Assembly: GCA_051859245.1 (NCBI GenBank)
Contig: JBHYGA010000001.1
Location: forward strand, 1,661,722-1,725,721
Direction: 5' to 3'
Length of the DNA stretch: 64,000 nucleotides
Source of the DNA: Gemmatimonadaceae bacterium
Lineage (GTDB): Bacteria; Gemmatimonadota; Gemmatimonadetes; Gemmatimonadales; Gemmatimonadaceae
Shown here: positions 23,731 to 30,807 of the stretch, piece by piece
How the letters are laid out: each line of letters begins with the position of its first letter
How positions within the stretch are numbered: the first letter of the stretch is position 1
Translations under genes and position numbers: made by a program
The notes under the pieces: model-generated
The model's database searches: none
What the model was told of the DNA's origin: nothing
The model's input: the letters and a program-made list of their open reading frames with translations, nothing else

Positions 23731-23742
23731 CACCACGTGCAG

Positions 23743-24297
23743 ATGACCGAGGCGGACCGAACGAAGGACGCGGCGGTGGACCAGGAGCTCATTGAGCGCT
23801 GGCGCGCCGGCGATGAGCGGGCGGCGACAGCGATTGTTGAGCGACACTCAACCGCGCTGGCCCGCTTCGCGCTCAGTCTCGGCGTTCGTGATGATCTGAA
23901 CGAGTTGGTGCAAGACACGTTTGTGCGTGCGTTTTCTGCGCTCGATTCGTTTCGTGCGGACAGTGCGCTTCGCACGTGGTTGTTTACGATTGAACGACGA
24001 TTGGTGCTGGATCGACGACGAGCAGCAAGGCGACGTCCGGACGCAGTAGAAGTGATGCCGGAAGACGCGGCGACAGAGTTTCACGCGTTGGACAGCATGG
24101 TGGCGAGTGAAACAGAAGACCGGGTGCGGGCCGCACTCACACGATTATCACCAATGCAGCGGGATGTGTTCACGCTGCGGGTGCAGGAAGGCAGAGCGTA
24201 CAAGGACATTGCGGATATTCTCGGGACTACCGAAGGCGCAGCCCGAGTGCATTATCACAACGCGCTTCGCGCGGTGAAGGAGTGGATTCATGACTGA
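23743..24297 (+). CDS. ECF (sigma70 group 4) RNA polymerase sigma factor
   Basis: Region 2 (ELVQDTFVRAF...FR.DS.LRTWLFTI) and region 4 (LSPMQRDVFTLR..EG..YKDIADILG). Start may be the GTG at 23737. Confidence 0.93.
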   Translation: MTEADRTKDAAVDQELIERWRAGDERAATAIVERHSTALARFALSLGVRDDLNELVQDTFVRAFSALDSFRADSALRTWLFTIERRLVLDRRRAARRRPDAVEVMPEDAATEFHALDSMVASETEDRVRAALTRLSPMQRDVFTLRVQEGRAYKDIADILGTTEGAARVHYHNALRAVKEWIHD

Positions 24298-24994
24298 TTG
24301 CACCAACAACGACCTGCAGGATCTGTTGCCCGAGTTTGCGGCTGGCGAGTTGCCAGCGCGCGAACGCGAGCTGGTCGACGTGCATCTGGTGTCGTGCGCT
24401 GCCTGCCGCGAAGAAGTCGAGGTGCTCGTGGCGGTGCTCAACGCACGTCCACTGCCGCCGATCATCGATGTGGCCTCCATTGTGGCGGCATTGCCCAAGC
24501 CACCAGTGCTCGCGGCCTCGTCGCGCGAAGAGCCAGCGACGCCAACACTTCGGGTGGTCACTGGCGGGCAGACTGGTCGCGCGCCGTCCATGCAGAAGGC
24601 GCGCGCCACACGTTCCGTGTTTGGTTCATCGTTCATGAAGTTCGCGGCTACGCTCACACTGGTTGCCGTTGGCGGTCTTTCCGTGGTGATGTCGGGCCGT
24701 GGCCCAATGTCGGTGTCGGACGCAGAGGTCGCTTCGGCGCCGATGTTCAGCGGTGACTCCACGGTGGTTGCCACACTTCCCGAGCCGTATTCAGCTGATC
24801 GTGTACCGGTAAAGGCGGTGGTGTCGGTTGCGCCATCCGTGTTGCCGATTCAGGAGTTGTCGGACTACTCCGATGATGAACTTGCGCTGTTGCTTGAACG
24901 GCTCGAGGCGTGGGACGGAGCACCGCCGGTTGAACCGGACAACGTGCCGCCGGCCACTATACAGAGTGACACCGCGATTCAGGAGGGATCATGA
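24290..24994 (+). CDS. Zinc-binding (zf-HC2/ZAS) transmembrane anti-sigma factor
   Basis: HLVSCAAC (HxxxCxxC), one TM segment (FAATLTLVAVGGLSVVM) and overlap with the sigma gene stop. Confidence 0.88.
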   Translation: MTDCTNNDLQDLLPEFAAGELPARERELVDVHLVSCAACREEVEVLVAVLNARPLPPIIDVASIVAALPKPPVLAASSREEPATPTLRVVTGGQTGRAPSMQKARATRSVFGSSFMKFAATLTLVAVGGLSVVMSGRGPMSVSDAEVASAPMFSGDSTVVATLPEPYSADRVPVKAVVSVAPSVLPIQELSDYSDDELALLLERLEAWDGAPPVEPDNVPPATIQSDTAIQEGS

Positions 24995-25587
24995 TCGCAC
25001 AGACATATGCAGGGTTTCGCCGGCACATTGGTGCCGCGCTCGCGGCTGCCGCGCTCGTCGTGTGTGTGCCGATCATGCAGGCAAGCGCACAATCGGGACC
25101 GCCGCAGGCGCGGCAGGGTCGCAGTGGACAGCCGCGCGGCGATCGCGAGATGGAGCAGCAAGTGCAGCGTCGTATTGGCGCCATGCTCAAGGAACGTCTC
25201 TCGCTCACTGACGATCAGCTGGTCAAGCTCGAAGCGGTCACCATGAAGCTTGAGCGCGACCGTCGAGCGGTGCGCGGGGAAGAGTTCCGCTTGCGCAGCG
25301 CGATGCGTCGTCATCTGCTGGCGGGAGATGCCGCATCCAATGATTCGGTCGCACCGTTGCTAGATCGGTTGCCCGCACTGGAACGTCGCAAGATCGATCT
25401 GATGGAGTTGGAGCAGCGTGAGTTGGCGCAGTTCCTCTCGCCAGTGCAGCGCGCGCGATTCATGGCGCTGCAGGAAGAGATCCGTCGCAACATGGACGAG
25501 ATCCGCGAGAAGCGCACGCCGGGAACGCCTTCACGATCCGGCGATCGGCCGCCACACAGCGCGCCGCCCACAAGCGGTCGTCCGTAG
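24991..25587 (+). CDS. Periplasmic Spy/CpxP-family (LTxxQ) protein
   Basis: Signal peptide, two LTxxQ-like motifs (LSLTDDQ, LSPVQ), helical Met/Arg-rich body and ATGA coupling to the anti-sigma gene. Confidence 0.7.
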   Translation: MIAQTYAGFRRHIGAALAAAALVVCVPIMQASAQSGPPQARQGRSGQPRGDREMEQQVQRRIGAMLKERLSLTDDQLVKLEAVTMKLERDRRAVRGEEFRLRSAMRRHLLAGDAASNDSVAPLLDRLPALERRKIDLMELEQRELAQFLSPVQRARFMALQEEIRRNMDEIREKRTPGTPSRSGDRPPHSAPPTSGRP

Positions 25588-25602: not shown

Positions 25603-25628
25603 CAGAAGCCGGCGCGAGTCGGCTTCTG
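25603..25628 (+). terminator. Hairpin closing the ECF operon (no clear U-tract)
   Basis: CAGAAGCCGGC-GCGA-GTCGGCTTCTG, with a GNRA loop. Confidence 0.5.
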
Positions 25629-25677
25629 GTGCGTCTGCACCATTGATCCCGAGTGCCTCACGCGTCTACTATTCCGC

Positions 25678-26118
25678 ATGCGACGTTCTCGCGCGGCGAA
25701 GATGCTTGGTCTGCTGCTAGCCTTGTGGTCGGTTCTGCTGACAGGCGAACCGATCTGGCTACACGACTGCCCAACCATGCCGTCGTCCGCTGTTTCAGCC
25801 GAGCCGAGCGAAGGCATCGCTGGTGCAGCGGTCTCGCCGGAGTCACACGCGCACCACGAACACGCCGCCGCAAACGCGCCGAACGCGGACGAGTCATCGC
25901 ATCACTCCGACAGTTCGCCGCACGAGTGCAACTGTGTTGGCGTGTGTGCGTCCGCCAGTGTTATCGCCGCGCCAGTGCTCGCGATCGTGCGCGTGCCAGC
26001 GCCCGCCGAAGTCATTTCGGCCACAACGCAGTATCCGAAGCACACCTCGGTAGACGCCCGGCCCGCGCCATCGTCGCGCCTGCCGTGGCCAACGGCACCG
26101 CCAGTCCTGTTCGCCTGA
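25678..26118 (+). CDS. DUF2946/CruR-CutF-like exported His/Cys-rich leader protein, putative ribosome-arrest regulator
   Basis: Signal/TM segment, HDCP, HAHHEH, HH, HECNCVGVC and C-terminal RLPWPTAPP four residues before the stop. Lies upstream of a TonB-dependent receptor. Confidence 0.65.
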   Translation: MRRSRAAKMLGLLLALWSVLLTGEPIWLHDCPTMPSSAVSAEPSEGIAGAAVSPESHAHHEHAAANAPNADESSHHSDSSPHECNCVGVCASASVIAAPVLAIVRVPAPAEVISATTQYPKHTSVDARPAPSSRLPWPTAPPVLFA

Positions 26119-26293
26119 TCGCGTGAATGCCGCGTGCCGCTGTCGCACAAACGACGGCGCACATCGCATTTGCACGCAAACTCTCACGCGCACCACGCCA
26201 GCCACGAGGGCTGTCGTGCAGATGTGCGTCGGCGAACTGTGAAGAGCGGGGCACTGCGTACACACGCATGCCCGCTCGGAGAACACTACACCC

Positions 26294-28666
26294 ATGTTGA
26301 AATTCTTCTGCAGCCGCTTTGCGGTTGCTGTCTCGTGCGCGCTTGTGTTGTTCGCGAGCAGCACGACGTCGCTGTCAGCCCAGGCACAAACCACCAGTGT
26401 GAGCGGCCGCGTCCTGGCCTCCGAAAACGGGTCGCCCCTTGAAGGGGTGCTGCTCGACATTCCGGGCACACGGCTTGGGACCATGTCAGGTGCCAATGGT
26501 GCGTGGCGCATCGACGGCGTCACGATTGGACGCGTGCGCATTCGCGCTCGGCGGCTCGGACTTGATACGCTCACGCGTGTGGTGGAGCTGCGAGCCGAAG
26601 GCAACGCGCTGATCGAGCTTCGTATGTCGAGCGCCACGTCGGTCGTGGCGCCCGTTGTGGTGAGCGCCACGCGCGAGGCGCAGCGTCGTGTTGAGAACTC
26701 GGCGACGATTGATGTGATTGGTGGCGCTGAGCTTCGGCTGGCGCGTGCCTCACATCCGGCGCAGGTCATGAAACGCATTCCGGGCGTATACGTCTCGCAG
26801 CTCTCGGGCGAAGGGCACTCGATGGCGATCCGGCAGCCGATCACCACCAAACCGATGTACCTGTATCTCGAAGACGGTGTGCCAACGCGCGCCACCGGCT
26901 TCTTCAATCACAACGCGATGTATGAGGTCAACCTGCCGCAGGCTGGTGGAGTGGAAGTGCTCAAAGGACCTGGCACGGCGCTCTACGGCAGCGATGCGAT
27001 TGGCGGGGTGGTGAACGCGCTCACGCGTGAAGCGCCACCAGTGCCGAGCGCCGATCTGAGCATGGAAGGCGGACGGTACGGCTTTCAGCGCGTGCTCTTT
27101 TCCGGTGGCAGCACGCGCGGCAATCACGGAATTCGCGTTGATGCCAACTTCACGCAACTGACCGGCTGGCGAGAGAACGCGCCGTATGATCGGCAGAGCG
27201 CCACACTGCGCTGGGACGCCCGACTGCGCGACGGTTTGTCCGTGCGTACGGTGGTCACCACGTCCATGATTGATCAAAACGACGTGCTGGCACAGTCGGG
27301 TGAGCAGTTTCTTGCGCGCGACCCGATCAATCGTTCACCACTCGCCTTTCGCAAAGTGGAAGCGCTGCGTTGGAGTTCAGCTATTGAGAAAGTGAACGCG
27401 CGCAGCAGCTGGAGCATCACGCCGTTCGCACGCCGCAACGTGCTTGAACTGTTGCCGTCGTGGCAGCTCACCTTCAACCCCCAGGTCTGGGATACGCGGA
27501 ACACCTCGTACGGCGTCCTGGCACGTGCACGACGTGACTTTGCACCACTGAACTCCCGCGTGATTGTTGGCGCCGATATCGATGTCAGCCCGGGCAGCTT
27601 TACCGCCGATCAAGCGGTGCTGCAAACGCAGGGAACAGGTGCCGCGCGCATCTTTGAATCGTACACGCTTGGCGTTCGCCAGTACGACTACGATGTCACC
27701 TTCCGTCAGGCGTCGCCGTACCTGCACACGGAGTTCTCGCCCTTCACACGCGTTCGCGTTGATGCCGGTTTGCGATACGACGTAGTGGCCTACGATTACA
27801 CCACCAACATTGCGGCGCGCGACACAGGACGCTTTCGCATTCCTGGTGACCAGACGCGCGACTATCAGCGATTCAGCCCCAAGATTGGCGTCACCGCAGA
27901 TGTCGCGCCGTGGCTCAACGTGTACGGAGCGTATCGCACCGGTTTCCGTGCGCCATCACACTCACAGCTCTTCCAGCAGAACGATGCGGCCAGCACGGTG
28001 GATCTCAAGCCGGTCACCGTGGAAAGCGCAGAAGTTGGACTGCGCGGTGAAGCAGGCGGCAAACTTGCGTGGTCACTCGCCGCGTACGATATGCGGTTGC
28101 AGAATGACATCATCACATTCGTGACCGCGACCAATACGCGCATTGCCACCAACGCCGGTTCCACCAGTCATCGTGGTATCGAAGGCAGTCTCGGCGCGCG
28201 TGTGCTGCCGCGTGTTCGTCTCGACCTCAGCGCAGCCGTTGCGGATCACCGCTACACCGACTGGACGCCGCAAGCGGCGCGTCCGGCCAGCGGCAACACG
28301 CCCGCTGTGGCAGAGGTCTCATACAGCGGCGCGCGAATTGAACAGGCCCCGCGCGTGCTTGGCAACGCGCTGCTGACACTCACACCAAAACTCATGCGTG
28401 GCGGACGATTGGCGGCGGAATGGTCACACACCGGTCGGTATCCGATGGATCCGTCGGGCGCAGTAGAGTACCGCGGACACGACCTGATCACGCTGCATGC
28501 AAACACATACATTCGCGGCGGTGTTGAGTTGTTTGCACGCGCGGTGAACGTGGCCGACAAAACGTACGCCGAGCTCGCCGCGTACGATCGGTTCGCGGGA
28601 CAACAGATCACTCCGGGCACGCCGCGTTCAATCTTTGTTGGCATGCGTTACGCATGGGAGCGCTAA
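26294..28666 (+). CDS. TonB-dependent receptor, probably metal (copper) uptake
   Basis: Signal peptide, N-terminal CarboxypepD_reg-like domain, VVVSATR TonB box region, VEVLKGPGTALYGSDAIGGVVN plug and barrel end PGTPRSIFVGMRYAW. The plug carries GEGHSM. Confidence 0.92.
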   Translation: MLKFFCSRFAVAVSCALVLFASSTTSLSAQAQTTSVSGRVLASENGSPLEGVLLDIPGTRLGTMSGANGAWRIDGVTIGRVRIRARRLGLDTLTRVVELRAEGNALIELRMSSATSVVAPVVVSATREAQRRVENSATIDVIGGAELRLARASHPAQVMKRIPGVYVSQLSGEGHSMAIRQPITTKPMYLYLEDGVPTRATGFFNHNAMYEVNLPQAGGVEVLKGPGTALYGSDAIGGVVNALTREAPPVPSADLSMEGGRYGFQRVLFSGGSTRGNHGIRVDANFTQLTGWRENAPYDRQSATLRWDARLRDGLSVRTVVTTSMIDQNDVLAQSGEQFLARDPINRSPLAFRKVEALRWSSAIEKVNARSSWSITPFARRNVLELLPSWQLTFNPQVWDTRNTSYGVLARARRDFAPLNSRVIVGADIDVSPGSFTADQAVLQTQGTGAARIFESYTLGVRQYDYDVTFRQASPYLHTEFSPFTRVRVDAGLRYDVVAYDYTTNIAARDTGRFRIPGDQTRDYQRFSPKIGVTADVAPWLNVYGAYRTGFRAPSHSQLFQQNDAASTVDLKPVTVESAEVGLRGEAGGKLAWSLAAYDMRLQNDIITFVTATNTRIATNAGSTSHRGIEGSLGARVLPRVRLDLSAAVADHRYTDWTPQAARPASGNTPAVAEVSYSGARIEQAPRVLGNALLTLTPKLMRGGRLAAEWSHTGRYPMDPSGAVEYRGHDLITLHANTYIRGGVELFARAVNVADKTYAELAAYDRFAGQQITPGTPRSIFVGMRYAWER

Positions 28667-28668
28667 CA

Positions 28669-29991
28669 ATGACGTTGAACATTACGCGTACCACATCGCG
28701 TCACGTGTACCACACGTGCACGGCGTTGGCGATTGTGCTGCTGGCCGCGTGTAGCACGCCAGAAGTTAATGCCACATCCATCGCGTTTGGCGATGCAGAA
28801 CGCCCGGGCCTTGGATCGCCGCGTGGCACCGCGCCAATGTTCGCGGTCACCCCCGATGGCCGAGAGGCCATCGCGTGGGTGTCTGCACCGGATGGCGGCA
28901 CCGACGGTCGATTGTATGTGCAAATCGGTAGCGCTTCGCCGGTCGAGCTGCGCGATAGTCTGGGTCCCATCGAGGGTCACGGTGAGGCCCCACCAAAACT
29001 CGTGATCGGTCCCGATGGGGTGGCGCACGCGATTTACGTAGTGTCGCGTCTCGAAGAGGGCCGCCGCTTTCCCGCGAGCGCGCTGCGTTACGTGCGATCA
29101 ACCGGCCGTGACGATGCGTGGACCTCTCCCATCACGGTCAGCGACGACGGGGATTTCGGTTCGCACAACTTTCACGCACTCTCGGTGGCCCCCGACGGCC
29201 GCGTGATCGTCTCGTGGCTGGACGGTCGCCATGGTCAGTCGGCCGCCTATGTGGCCGTCTCCTCTGACTCCGGCCGCACCTTCGCTGCGAACGTGCGCGC
29301 CGACACCACGGCCGCGTGCCCGTGCTGCCGAACCGCCGTCGCCGCGGCCACGGACGGTACGCTGTACATGGCCTGGCGCAGTATCCTGCCCGGTGGCATT
29401 CGCGACATTGTCATGGCCCGGTCGCAGGACGCTGGCGCCACCTGGAGCGAGCCAGTTCCCGTCCACGCCGACAACTGGCAGTTCGATGGCTGCCCCCACG
29501 CGGGACCGAGCGTTCGCGTCGATGCGGAAGGCCGAGTGCACGTGGCCTGGTGGACCGGACGTGAGGGTGCCGCTGGTGTGCAGTACGCCATCTCGACGGA
29601 CCAGGCCCGGACGTTTGGCCCACCCGTCGCGCTGGGGATGGCGAACTTCTCTCGACCGGCGCATGTTCAATTGGCACTGGGCGGAGCCGACACGGTGGTC
29701 GCGGTTTGGGACGACGGCACTGTGGAGACGCCGCAGGTGGTACTTCGACGTTCCGTCGATGGTGGAAAGACGTTCGCGCCCGCCATCATCTTGAGCGACA
29801 CGTCCAAAGCTGCCACTTTCCCAGTCGTCGGCGTTACCGGACGCGGAATCACCGTCGCCTGGTCCGAACAACCGCTTGCCAGCCTGGCTGCCGAGGAGAA
29901 AGCAAAGCCCAATATGCGCGATCCGAAAGCAGTCATGGGACTCAAATCGATCGGCGACATGCAGGTTGTCATTCGTCGGGAACGCCGATGA
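28669..29991 (+). CDS. BNR/Asp-box (sialidase-like) beta-propeller lipoprotein with CPCC and GCPH motifs
   Basis: Lipobox LAAC and Asp-boxes SSDSGRTF, SQDAGATW, STDQARTF, SVDGGKTF. GGGAG RBS before ATG 28669. Confidence 0.82.
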   Translation: MTLNITRTTSRHVYHTCTALAIVLLAACSTPEVNATSIAFGDAERPGLGSPRGTAPMFAVTPDGREAIAWVSAPDGGTDGRLYVQIGSASPVELRDSLGPIEGHGEAPPKLVIGPDGVAHAIYVVSRLEEGRRFPASALRYVRSTGRDDAWTSPITVSDDGDFGSHNFHALSVAPDGRVIVSWLDGRHGQSAAYVAVSSDSGRTFAANVRADTTAACPCCRTAVAAATDGTLYMAWRSILPGGIRDIVMARSQDAGATWSEPVPVHADNWQFDGCPHAGPSVRVDAEGRVHVAWWTGREGAAGVQYAISTDQARTFGPPVALGMANFSRPAHVQLALGGADTVVAVWDDGTVETPQVVLRRSVDGGKTFAPAIILSDTSKAATFPVVGVTGRGITVAWSEQPLASLAAEEKAKPNMRDPKAVMGLKSIGDMQVVIRRERR

Positions 29992-30662
29992 CACAGCGAT
30001 CGCACCACGTGCGCGCTGCCGTGCTGGCGGCACTCGCGATGTCGGCGCTTGTCGCGTGCGATCGCTCGCGCGCCAGCGATGGCGCCACCGCGTCTCCGCG
30101 AAGCGGACCGGTGAGTGTCGGCGCCACCGCGCCCGCCTATACAATTCAAACACTCGCCGGTGATTCGCTCAACGTGGGGCCGAGTGACCATCTGGTGTTG
30201 CTCAACGTGTGGGCCACGTGGTGCGCGTCATGCAAGGAAGAGTTTGCGTTTATGGACACGCTGCTCGCCAAGCATGGCCGCAAGGGCCTGCGCGTTGTTG
30301 CGGTCAGTGTTGACGTTGGAAGCAGCGAACCGGTTCAGCAGGTCGCGTCGCAGTACAACGTGACATTTGAAGTGGCGCACGATCCCGAAGGCACGATCGA
30401 GCGACGTTTTCCTGCGATGGGTGTGCCGGCGAGTTATCTCATCGATCGTGATGGCAAGTTGTTGTGGAAGCATGTGGGTGTACTTCCGCCCTCTGTAGAC
30501 GCGGTCATCGGAGACGCTCTGGAAGCCGCGCCAACGGAAGCGCCTGCTGAAGAGGAGCACGACCATCCGGTTGAGGAAGTACTGGAGGGACCGGGTGGCG
30601 AGGTGTACGGCGCTGTCAAGCCAGCGGCACGCGCGGGCGCGCTGGGCAAGCGCGTCGGCTAG
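29988..30662 (+). CDS. TlpA/ResA-like thiol-disulfide oxidoreductase lipoprotein
   Basis: ATGA overlap, lipobox LVAC, LLNVWATWCASC and GVPASYLIDRDG. Confidence 0.9.
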   Translation: MTQRSHHVRAAVLAALAMSALVACDRSRASDGATASPRSGPVSVGATAPAYTIQTLAGDSLNVGPSDHLVLLNVWATWCASCKEEFAFMDTLLAKHGRKGLRVVAVSVDVGSSEPVQQVASQYNVTFEVAHDPEGTIERRFPAMGVPASYLIDRDGKLLWKHVGVLPPSVDAVIGDALEAAPTEAPAEEEHDHPVEEVLEGPGGEVYGAVKPAARAGALGKRVG

Positions 30663-30723: not shown

Positions 30724-30807
30724 ACCCGGGTGGCGGAACTGGTAGACGCAGGGGACTCAAAATCCCCCATCCCTTGGGATATGGGGGTTCGATTCCCCCC
30801 TCGGGTA
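30724..30807 (+). tRNA. tRNA-Leu(CAA)
   Basis: Acceptor ACCCGGG/CTCGGGT, D-arm TGGCGGAACTGGTAGACGC, anticodon arm GGGGA-CTCAAAA-TCCCC, long variable arm and GGTTCGATTCC. CCA not encoded in register. Confidence 0.95.

Follow-up and report, generated by a model that had tools for sequence, protein, structure and literature searches.

The window examined here is a 64,000-nucleotide (nt) stretch of a Gemmatimonadaceae bacterium genome (contig JBHYGA010000001.1 of NCBI GenBank assembly GCA_051859245.1, positions 1,661,722 to 1,725,721, forward strand), and our subject is an open reading frame (ORF) of 146 amino acids (aa) within it, the first gene in front of a TonB-dependent receptor operon. We consider it reasonably probable that this ORF encodes a cis-acting, copper-sensing leader peptide on which ribosomes pause at a polyproline-type [AG]PP site. 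A preliminary description of the same DNA had listed its parts (a signal or transmembrane helix, HDCP, a His cluster, HECNCVGVC, a spacer and RLPWPTAPP), all of which we find at the residues it gave. It had also placed the ORF directly upstream of a TonB receptor operon, and this is borne out by a receptor gene 175 nt downstream followed by genes for a BNR-repeat and a TlpA-like protein. The leader ORF is laid out as follows:

25678..26118, + strand: leader ORF of 146 aa including the stop (ATG 25678, TGA 26116-26118), of an unnamed Cys/His-rich family with the C-terminal ending LP[FYW]x[TN][AG]PP
25690..25743, + strand: N-terminal hydrophobic helix, residues 5-22, behind an MRRSR n-region; AlphaFold2 predicted local distance difference test (pLDDT) 85-92
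25762..25773, + strand: H29-D-C31-P32 immediately behind the helix; C31 invariant; family consensus LHxCPMH
25846..25863, + strand: His cluster H57/H59/H60/H62, with H75/H76 further on; H57 and H60 at least 90% conserved
25927..25947, + strand: C84-N-C86-V-G-V-C90, the family motif CxCxx(x)C(C); C84 and C86 invariant, C90 at least 90% conserved
25948..26076, + strand: spacer, residues 91-133, variable in sequence and conserved in length
26077..26103, + strand: R134-L-P-W-P-T-A-P141-P142, the presumed pause or arrest site; P136, P141 and P142 invariant
26104..26118, + strand: four-residue tail VLFA and TGA; the tail has 2-7 residues in 83 of 89 family members

The N-terminus of the leader is positively charged (MRRSRAAK) and runs into the hydrophobic stretch, whose predicted helix may be a signal peptide or an N-in signal anchor. 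H82 and E83 precede C84, the ORF has no CxxC and instead carries C84-x-C86-xxx-C90, and residues 91-138 form a 48-residue stretch rich in Ala, Pro, Val and Ser. The database gene call for this protein (P0001) starts at M9 and is shorter, at 138 aa; we prefer the 146-aa start because of the family alignment and because a constant Cys falls at position 30-34 in the family loci when counted from the upstream ATG (31 in most of the loci shown). AlphaFold2, given an alignment of 80 family sequences, predicts the N-terminal helix alone (mean pLDDT 65; predicted template modeling score 0.28) and no secondary structure in the spacer (block-mean pLDDT 59-76). This low-confidence model outside the helix fits a nascent-chain sensor better than a stable domain.

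An exhaustive HMMER search with the leader protein returned 94 representatives at E<=1e-3, nearly all of 120-190 aa, whose matches reach within a few residues of their C-termini; a word-index protein search returned the protein itself, one 62%-identical relative and nothing more. We examined 95 sequences (the window ORF, P0002 and 93 representatives) and find the pattern xxPxxx[AGP]PP within 22 residues of the C-terminus in 89 of them. The six that lack it (P0037, P0046, P0060, P0063, P0072 and P0094) are truncated sequences, apart from one repeat protein of 755 aa; among the 89, P0030 has aberrant spacing and its match is probably due to chance. The family consensus for the ending is [LR]-P-[FYW(P)]-x-[TN]-[AG]-P-P. 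In 86 of the 89 members the PP stands 1-9 residues before the stop, and it is preceded by Gly (52), Ala (36) or Pro (1) and by no other residue. The position that holds Arg in RAPP arrest peptides is occupied by Thr in 45 members, by Asn in 36 and by Ile, His, Asp, Ser, Leu or Gln in 8 together. The preliminary description had read the window ending as a RAPP motif in which Arg had been replaced by Thr; Arg or Lys stands there in 0 of 89 family members, and that derivation falls away.

The 80-sequence alignment leaves out 15 sequences in which the motif is missing or which have long extensions (P0030, P0032, P0036, P0037, P0046, P0054, P0060, P0063, P0067, P0072, P0075, P0081, P0082, P0092 and P0094). 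In it C31, C84, C86, P136, P141 and P142 are invariant, and W17 in the helix is conserved, like H57, H60 and C90, in at least 90% of sequences. Measured from the first Cys of CxC, the first Pro of PP comes 52-57 residues later in 88 of 90 rows, mostly 54-55 (57 in the window); P0030 and P0060 are the outliers. Counted from the last Cys to the first Pro, the family distance is 48-49, with a mode of 45-46 intervening residues; in the window 48 residues intervene. The invariant prolines are encoded by all four Pro codons and, because these codons vary synonymously, the constraint at the motif acts on the peptide. The preliminary description had proposed looking for conservation of the proline ending, the Cys motif and the spacer length, and all three are conserved across the family, the ending as LP(W/F)xx[AG]PP.

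Each of the 30 loci taken from the GTDB family of the source genome (L004-L033, L004 being the window's own) holds the ORF. At the level of genomes, 62 of 201 from this family match the single protein (E<=0.01; the count includes G134, flagged unpublished), and 143 of 301 genomes sampled across the phylum match the family profile (E<=1e-5; including G247, unpublished). Repeated matches, 2-5 in a genome, are common, and 9 of the 12 families sampled are represented. Close relatives of the receptor come from records of Gemmatimonas, Gemmatimonadaceae or Gemmatimonadales, and the nearest ESM Atlas clusters to the leader are Gemmatimonadota hypotheticals (0.97 and 0.96) and, third, a 'DUF2946 domain-containing' cluster (0.95). 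That the ORF might be a chance open frame in GC-rich DNA, a concern raised by several overlapping ORFs of similar length on both strands, has next to no probability in view of the hundreds of homologs, the invariant residues, the synonymous codon variation and the constant position before a receptor. The leader ORF is a real, conserved gene.

Two observations concern the edges of the family. Many profile matches in other families of the phylum contain one in-frame TGA, and we considered and rejected a selenocysteine: of 20 such places fetched, 19 yielded an ORF, and in 18 of these the stop lies upstream of the start codon or there is none, leaving the ORFs intact. The exceptions are L106, which is listed with TAG, and L109, which gave no ORF by the pattern used. 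In two phylum families (f6 and f7; L091-L110) we also find variants that end in RPF[AG]QPPPA, a PPP ending as in the Rhodobacter protein CutF, and that carry the motif CDCLGxCLTCxG.

Codon usage at the ending bears directly on its role. In the window L135-P142 is encoded by CTG CCG TGG CCA ACG GCA CCG CCA, so that the residue before PP (X) and the two prolines read GCA-CCG-CCA (26095-26103). Codons ending in A or T are rare in these GC-rich ORFs. Across 49 distinct loci they are used at X in 30 and at the first Pro in 31, against a background of 149/895 and 100/634 (about 16%) for the same residues elsewhere in the same ORFs; at the second Pro (10/49) and at the Pro of LP (4/49) their use equals the background. 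Because related genomes are not independent, the Fisher p-values for this bias are overstated. A set of 16 RAPP ORFs has the same tendency in weaker form (6, 7 and 3 of 16). The bias supports a translational role for the motif, and APP, GPP and PPP, the triplets that the family allows, are strong diprolyl stalling triplets whose effect is modulated by residues up to -5 (PMC5811046).

A putative promoter can be read immediately in front of the ORF:

25643..25672, + strand: putative promoter, -35-like TTGATC at 25643-25648, 18-nt spacer, -10-like TACTAT at 25667-25672

The -10-like hexamer ends 5 nt before the leader ATG. A consensus promoter scan reported 0 promoters, this one being below its threshold. 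A TAnnnT hexamer lies within -20 to -4 of the predicted ATG in 23 of 32 loci (from the window, L005-L033, L052, L053, L057 and L068) compared with 0-1 of 32 in five equal-sized control windows upstream, and it starts 10-17 nt before the ATG with a mode at -13. No Shine-Dalgarno sequence is evident before the leader ATG in the 32 loci. Judged from these positions, the leader mRNAs are probably leaderless or near-leaderless. Further upstream, a hairpin at about 25603-25630 lies between this promoter and a gene for an LTXXQ/CpxP-like periplasmic protein, which together with an extracytoplasmic function (ECF) sigma factor and a zf-HC2 anti-sigma factor occupies 23737-25587, directly upstream of the leader; an LTXXQ gene is directly upstream in a Gemmatimonas sp. 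record as well (L054, 2501-3124).

Downstream of the leader the window carries the following genes:

26294..28666, + strand: TonB-dependent receptor with CarboxypepD_reg, Plug and beta-barrel domains, 175 nt behind the leader
28654..29991, + strand: BNR-repeat beta-propeller protein with a lipoprotein-like N-terminus (..LLAAC); alternative start at 28669, 3 nt behind the receptor stop
29988..30662, + strand: TlpA/ResA-like thioredoxin-fold lipoprotein (AhpC-TSA 2.3e-15; ResA 7.1e-23; TlpA 1.1e-14)
30724..30807: tRNA-Leu, behind the TlpA-like gene, closing the unit

The likely start of the TlpA-like gene, from its ORF translation, is the ATG at 29988, which gives a 4-nt overlap with the BNR stop. 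A Plug-domain receptor lies immediately downstream of the leader in 22 of 29 relatives, and in 24 of 29 once L019 and L032 are followed on longer stretches; in L014 the copper chaperone PCuAC is directly behind the leader, and four of the 29 gave no downstream assignment with the frames picked. The window's own order of receptor, BNR and then AhpC/TSA recurs in L034, L037, L041 and L045 where the stretch is long enough. In L050 the receptor is followed by an AhpC/TSA-bearing ORF with no BNR match, and in L049 a BNR gene precedes a receptor. Other loci carry copper genes: L051 has a receptor, CopC-CopD and DUF1775/YcnI, L053 a receptor and CopC-CopD. The distance between leader and next gene is roughly 53-230 nt in relatives when counted to the first possible start codon, which is an underestimate.

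Some loci hold more than one leader. L035 reads leader, AhpC/TSA, SCO1, PCuAC, CtaG, second leader, receptor, and L040 reads leader, CcmH-like, SCO1, PCuAC, leader, receptor; there are two or three paralogs per locus, each heading its own unit, and the third in L040 is on the opposite strand. From this arrangement it would seem that copper import and the delivery of copper to cytochrome oxidase are each under a leader of their own. In 20 longer stretches we saw no efflux pump, no multicopper oxidase and no Zn, Ni or Co transport family. The neighbours of the leader family are the same families that are listed for homologs of cruR, namely TonB-dependent transporter (TBDT), PCuAC, Sco, CopC, YcnI and AhpC_TSA (Roy et al. 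2022, PMC9426467).

The association can also be approached from the receptor. Among 15 loci selected by receptor instead of leader, all three from Gemmatimonadales with enough upstream DNA have a leader, with the endings LPWPTAPP, LPFAQAPP and LPFAHAPP. In ten receptor-selected loci from other phyla, one has a CxxC...RAPP ORF upstream (DUF2946 E=2.2e-4; a Deltaproteobacteria metagenome-assembled genome (MAG) whose receptor is 40% identical), two have a Cys-rich protein (weak DUF326) and one has a Cys/His-rich ORF without PP; in the other six nothing comparable was seen upstream. The two loci with the Cys-rich protein are proteobacterial MAG records (L066, 3244-3660; L067, 3260-3691), in which this small protein has many CxxxC pairs and lies upstream of a receptor relative, 62% identical over 140 matched residues in L066 and 42% identical in L067; this protein resembles, we presume, copper storage proteins.

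The same association could be read in another way, namely that the leader is a working protein: a small membrane-anchored or periplasmic copper-binding chaperone, or a relay between the receptor and partners of the Sco, PCuAC or CopC type, whose conserved C-terminus serves as a protein-protein contact or a sorting signal. Invariant Cys and His ligands, an export helix and constant company of copper-handling proteins are what such a protein would have, and since disordered metal-binding peptides can fold on metal, the low pLDDT could be accommodated. Several features fit it poorly. A spacer conserved in length and not in sequence would be unusual for a contact surface; the invariant PP is preceded by Ala, Gly or Pro alone and sits close to the stop in nearly all members; the rare codons fall exactly at X and the first Pro; and the ORF invariably comes first, has a promoter-like element at its ATG and is followed by a long intergenic region. 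In addition, the comparable proteins CruR and CutF are undetectable in vivo (PMC9426467, PMC9973294). We rate this explanation as rather unlikely.

Another possibility is that a leader of the same type senses Zn, Ni or Co, or redox or thiol state, instead of copper. The window operon itself is without an unambiguous copper protein, TlpA-like proteins act on thiols generally, the His-rich stretch would suit zinc too, and CutF-like clusters include probable Ni/Co sensors (PMC9973294). On the other side stand the paralogs and orthologs at the head of Sco1/PCuAC/CtaG and CopCD/YcnI sets, the four-Cys site, which favours Cu(I), and the 20 longer stretches with no Zn, Ni or Co transport family downstream. 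We regard a signal other than copper as quite improbable.

For the leader reading, the closest described system is CruR (Bp2923) of Bordetella pertussis, the prototype of DUF2946 (PF11162). CruR has 145 aa, a CXXC at 90-93 and RAPP at 139-142, with 45 intervening residues (C93 to P141 being 48) and a 3-residue tail, and it is followed by a 162-nt intergenic region with a C>G bubble and a TBDT gene. Arrest at RAPP blocks Rho-dependent termination until copper relieves the arrest; the double change R139A+A140S abolishes function, and a 5-residue change in spacing strongly lowers the copper response (PMC9426467). The window leader is nearly equal in length, has an N-terminal export signal and an upstream Cys (semi-conserved in CruR, invariant here), and carries its Cys motif about 48-51 residues before an xAPP at the same positions, 139-142, with a tail of four residues instead of three; a long intergenic region, a TBDT and the same neighbour families follow. 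The CruR-like layout that the preliminary description had seen is well founded in length, PP position, distance from last Cys to PP, intergenic length and TBDT. The leader family as a whole has the CruR-type layout of export helix, first gene, copper or TBDT neighbours and long intergenic region, and its modal Cys-PP spacing equals that of CruR to within the 1-2 residues by which the spacing varies in the CruR family. It differs from CruR in having CxCxxxC instead of CXXC, T/N-A/G-P-P instead of R-A-P-P and a conserved LP[FYW] upstream of it; the window locus also has BNR and TlpA genes and no PepSY_TM gene. Finally, CruR arrest is independent of elongation factor P (EF-P), whereas a stall at an Arg-less [AG]PP would be expected to be EF-P sensitive.

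Membership in DUF2946, which the preliminary description had suggested comparing, is not upheld by the profile scores. PF11162 scores 14.3 bits on the window ORF against a cut-off of 23.7 (E=0.072, profile positions 3-117 of 117), a search of the source genome with it gave no match at the leader ORF, and it reaches E<=0.01 in 18 of the 80 aligned family members (best 7.8e-5). The best-scoring curated model for the window ORF is the NCBIfam model CopL_fam (NF033807), with 22.4 bits against a 40-bit cut-off (E=1.4e-4, residues 26-123); it reaches E<=0.01 in 28 of 80 members (best 1.5e-5), none near the cut-off. Canonical DUF2946 proteins are also found in the phylum, where 22 of 301 genomes match PF11162 at E<=1e-3, nine of them above the cut-off. 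We extracted 15 CxxC plus RAPP ORFs from the phylum, and their distance from last Cys to first Pro is 46-49; the equal Cys-PP spacing of the Arg-less and RAPP families could reflect a shared physical constraint. Both leader types occur together in two genomes (G024 and G185), and in this respect the Arg-less form, thought at first to be a narrowly lineage-specific version, turns out to be phylum-wide and to coexist with canonical RAPP ORFs. The canonical ORFs are those at L070-L090, one subgroup of which has the conserved ending HLSPHRSRAPPLPISL.

The second comparison is with CutF of Rhodobacter capsulatus, which has an Arg-less PPP ending, a CxxxC and four Cys (Öztürk et al. 2021, 2023; PMC9973294) and whose stall is EF-P sensitive and induced by copper (bioRxiv 10.1101/2025.02.05.636593). 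Like CutF, the window leader is a small exported Cys protein: it has a CxxxC at C86-C90, four Cys altogether and a proline ending without Arg. TonB-like and PCuAC genes are among the most frequent neighbours in the published CutF-like set (PMC9973294). The features that define this set operationally are found in the window ORF: 146 aa, P141-P142 four residues from the end, a predicted helix at 5-22, a receptor 175 nt downstream on the same strand, and four Cys with a His cluster. CutF itself ends in PPP and controls a detoxifying oxidase by way of a short stem-loop that hides the ribosome-binding site (RBS), with copper inducing the stall; the window, unlike CutF, has [TN][AG]PP, a long intergenic region and uptake or delivery genes downstream, and because of these genes the sign of control is probably opposite to that of CutF. 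The main phyla of the CutF-like set are Pseudomonadota, Actinomycetota and Bacteroidota (PMC9973294). No Gemmatimonad* entry occurs in the text-form parts of the supplement of PMC9973294, and no paper among those listed from the one literature collection searched joins Gemmatimonad* with CutF, CruR, DUF2946 or CopL.

Two further groups of peptides invite comparison. The RAPP, RGPP and RAGP peptides (ApdA, ApdP, ApcA and SecM) likewise are small secretory or membrane proteins with x-[AG]-P-P at the C-terminus, close to the stop, are encoded upstream of the regulated gene and allow Ala and Gly to interchange at the second position (PMC10951233, PMC12992588). In the family studied here the Arg of these peptides is missing, and they regulate protein-localisation genes and are not known to sense metals. 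In ApcA, ApdA and ApdP, systematic mutagenesis showed that none of the 19 other residues can replace the Arg of RAP, with Ala to Gly tolerated (PMC12992588); because of this we judge it unlikely that T/N-[AG]-P-P works as a RAPP-type block. CopL of Xanthomonas and Stenotrophomonas is encoded, like the leader, upstream of copper genes, is likewise small and rich in Cys and His, and reportedly has no action in trans (PMC9973294). Unlike the leader, it precedes copper-resistance (copAB) genes, and the CopL_fam match omits the C-terminal motif.

On sequence grounds we assign the window ORF to a distinct family that spans the phylum. Its members are CruR/CutF-like leader peptides that lack the Arg and have a consensus of their own; they are not variants of RAPP. 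The preliminary description was right about the kind of element, a leader, and wrong to label it a variant of RAPP. Its suggestion of an undescribed arrest motif survives for the particular consensus and not for the absence of Arg as such, since Arg-less proline endings are already present in the published CutF-like set.

How such a leader would control the receptor depends on the RNA behind the pause site, in which two features stand out:

25960..26240, + strand: candidate Rho-loading (rut-like) stretch with C>G, from the 3' part of the leader ORF through two thirds of the intergenic region
26119..26293, + strand: intergenic region of 175 nt, strongly structured, including a hairpin at 26244-26277

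In the candidate Rho-loading region C exceeds G by +8.5% over 281 nt and by as much as +16.7% over 78 nt. In the final 75 nt of the leader, C minus G averages +17.3% over 30 loci and is positive in 30 of 30; in the 300 nt that follow, the mean is +8 to +10%. Both Rho (658.6 bits) and EF-P (215 bits) are encoded in the genome. No intrinsic terminator with a U-tract was found on the + strand of the intergenic region, where the hairpin at 26244-26277 is without a U run and is followed by GGAG (26278-26281), 12 nt before the receptor ATG. Nor did any Rfam family score above threshold in the leader or intergenic region; a microRNA model was the one sub-threshold match (22.2 against 73 bits).

An output of the CutF type, in which the paused ribosome melts an mRNA structure that hides the receptor RBS and so controls translation initiation, has to be weighed at this point. 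The intergenic region is indeed strongly structured (26040-26330 has a minimum free energy (MFE) of -127.4 kcal/mol, z = -2.74, and 0 of 200 shuffles fold as well), GGAG has a low predicted probability of being unpaired (0.17), the last ORF codons (26109-26115) pair with 26231-26237 in the MFE structure and close a large multibranch domain, and CutF itself works in this way (PMC9973294; bioRxiv 10.1101/2025.02.05.636593). The stall site is, however, about 175-190 nt from the receptor RBS. Direct pairing of the stall codons with the RBS is unsupported at the window locus, where the best duplex between the 3' end of the leader and the RBS (-13.4 kcal/mol) is no better than shuffles (mean -16.8; 86% of 500 as good), and when the ribosome footprint (26086-26118) is kept single-stranded in the prediction, accessibility stays practically as it was for GGAG (0.17 to 0.16) and AUG (0.47 to 0.46). 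We consider this output unlikely. Because RBS unmasking is unsupported at the window locus, transcription attenuation is favoured and is probably the output; within it, the CruR example leads us to prefer pause-controlled Rho termination, which would keep the operon ON at low copper.

Based on these comparisons, we propose that the leader is a short exported or membrane-anchored peptide with a regulatory job and would be the first cistron of a copper-supply operon made up of leader, TonB receptor, BNR lipoprotein and TlpA-like thiol reductase. The mRNA would start at or next to the ATG, and the N-terminal helix would direct the growing peptide to the Sec translocon. A copper-binding site made of C31, the His cluster and CxCxxxC would come out of the ribosome and translocon as the ribosome reaches [AG]PP about 50 residues later. 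There the ribosome would pause, with LP[FYW] and the rare codons at X and the first Pro probably adding to the effect; because the Arg is missing, this would be a polyproline-type, EF-P-sensitive pause as in CutF rather than a block of the peptidyl-transferase centre as at RAPP. The duration of the pause would vary with the metal state of the nascent chain and would in turn set expression of the receptor operon. With a CruR-type output, a ribosome paused four codons before the stop would cover the start of the C-rich, G-poor region and exclude Rho; on release of the ribosome Rho would terminate transcription in the 175-nt intergenic region. Since all downstream gene sets are for copper acquisition or delivery, low copper would switch the operon ON and abundant copper would switch it OFF. 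The family with its motifs and spacing, the gene order and copper context, the codon and C>G biases and the presence of rho and efp are observed; that the leader binds copper, makes ribosomes pause, acts in cis and depends on Rho, and in which direction copper acts, we infer.

A number of points weigh against the scheme. At the pause site, Thr at X(-2), two residues before PP, attenuates diprolyl stalls (PMC5811046), and because the RAPP Arg is missing and this Thr is present the pause may be weak or dependent on special context. The window spacer exceeds the family mode by 2-3 residues. The C>G values of the candidate Rho-loading region are reached by 4.4% (281 nt) and 2.0% (78 nt) of equally sized windows on both strands of the 64-kb window, and the bias is partly forced by Pro and Ala codons. 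An alignment of the intergenic regions of three same-genus loci is so poor that no conserved RNA element emerges from it. With respect to CruR, a profile comparison (hhalign) of the 80-sequence family with 16 CxxC/RAPP ORFs gives a probability of 12.9% and aligns 21 N-terminal columns; because the N-terminal signal alone aligns, shared ancestry with CruR is not demonstrated, and the resemblance could be convergent. The identity of the metal is deduced entirely from neighbouring genes, and a conserved membrane-anchored Cys/His peptide could be a working copper-binding protein.

Going beyond this scheme, it is possible, if doubtful, that LP[FYW]x[TN][AG]PP represents a programmed arrest sequence of a third class, one that works without Arg. 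In such a class LP-aromatic and the rare codons at X and the first Pro would replace the RAPP Arg and hold the ribosome, and the Cys4/His site about 50 residues away, just outside the tunnel or translocon, would tune the hold through its metal state. The class would be phylum-wide, would act on leaderless mRNAs and would gate operons for both copper import and copper delivery.

To our knowledge, metal-sensing leader peptides have so far been studied in two proteobacterial examples only, CruR and CutF. They do not agree in their stall motif, in whether EF-P affects the stall, in whether the signal peptide is required, or in the sign of control. The family described here adds a third, sharply defined consensus in a phylum that has received little study, where about half of the genomes sampled carry it, often in several copies, and the current Pfam and NCBIfam models miss this Arg-less branch. 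Standing beside canonical RAPP versions, it offers a natural comparison set for the contribution of the RAPP Arg and for the question of why the Cys-PP distance is fixed at about 48 residues. It offers the same for how copper import is coupled to the delivery of copper to cytochrome oxidase by Sco1, PCuAC and TlpA, and for the module of receptor, BNR lipoprotein and TlpA-like protein a role in copper uptake is probable.

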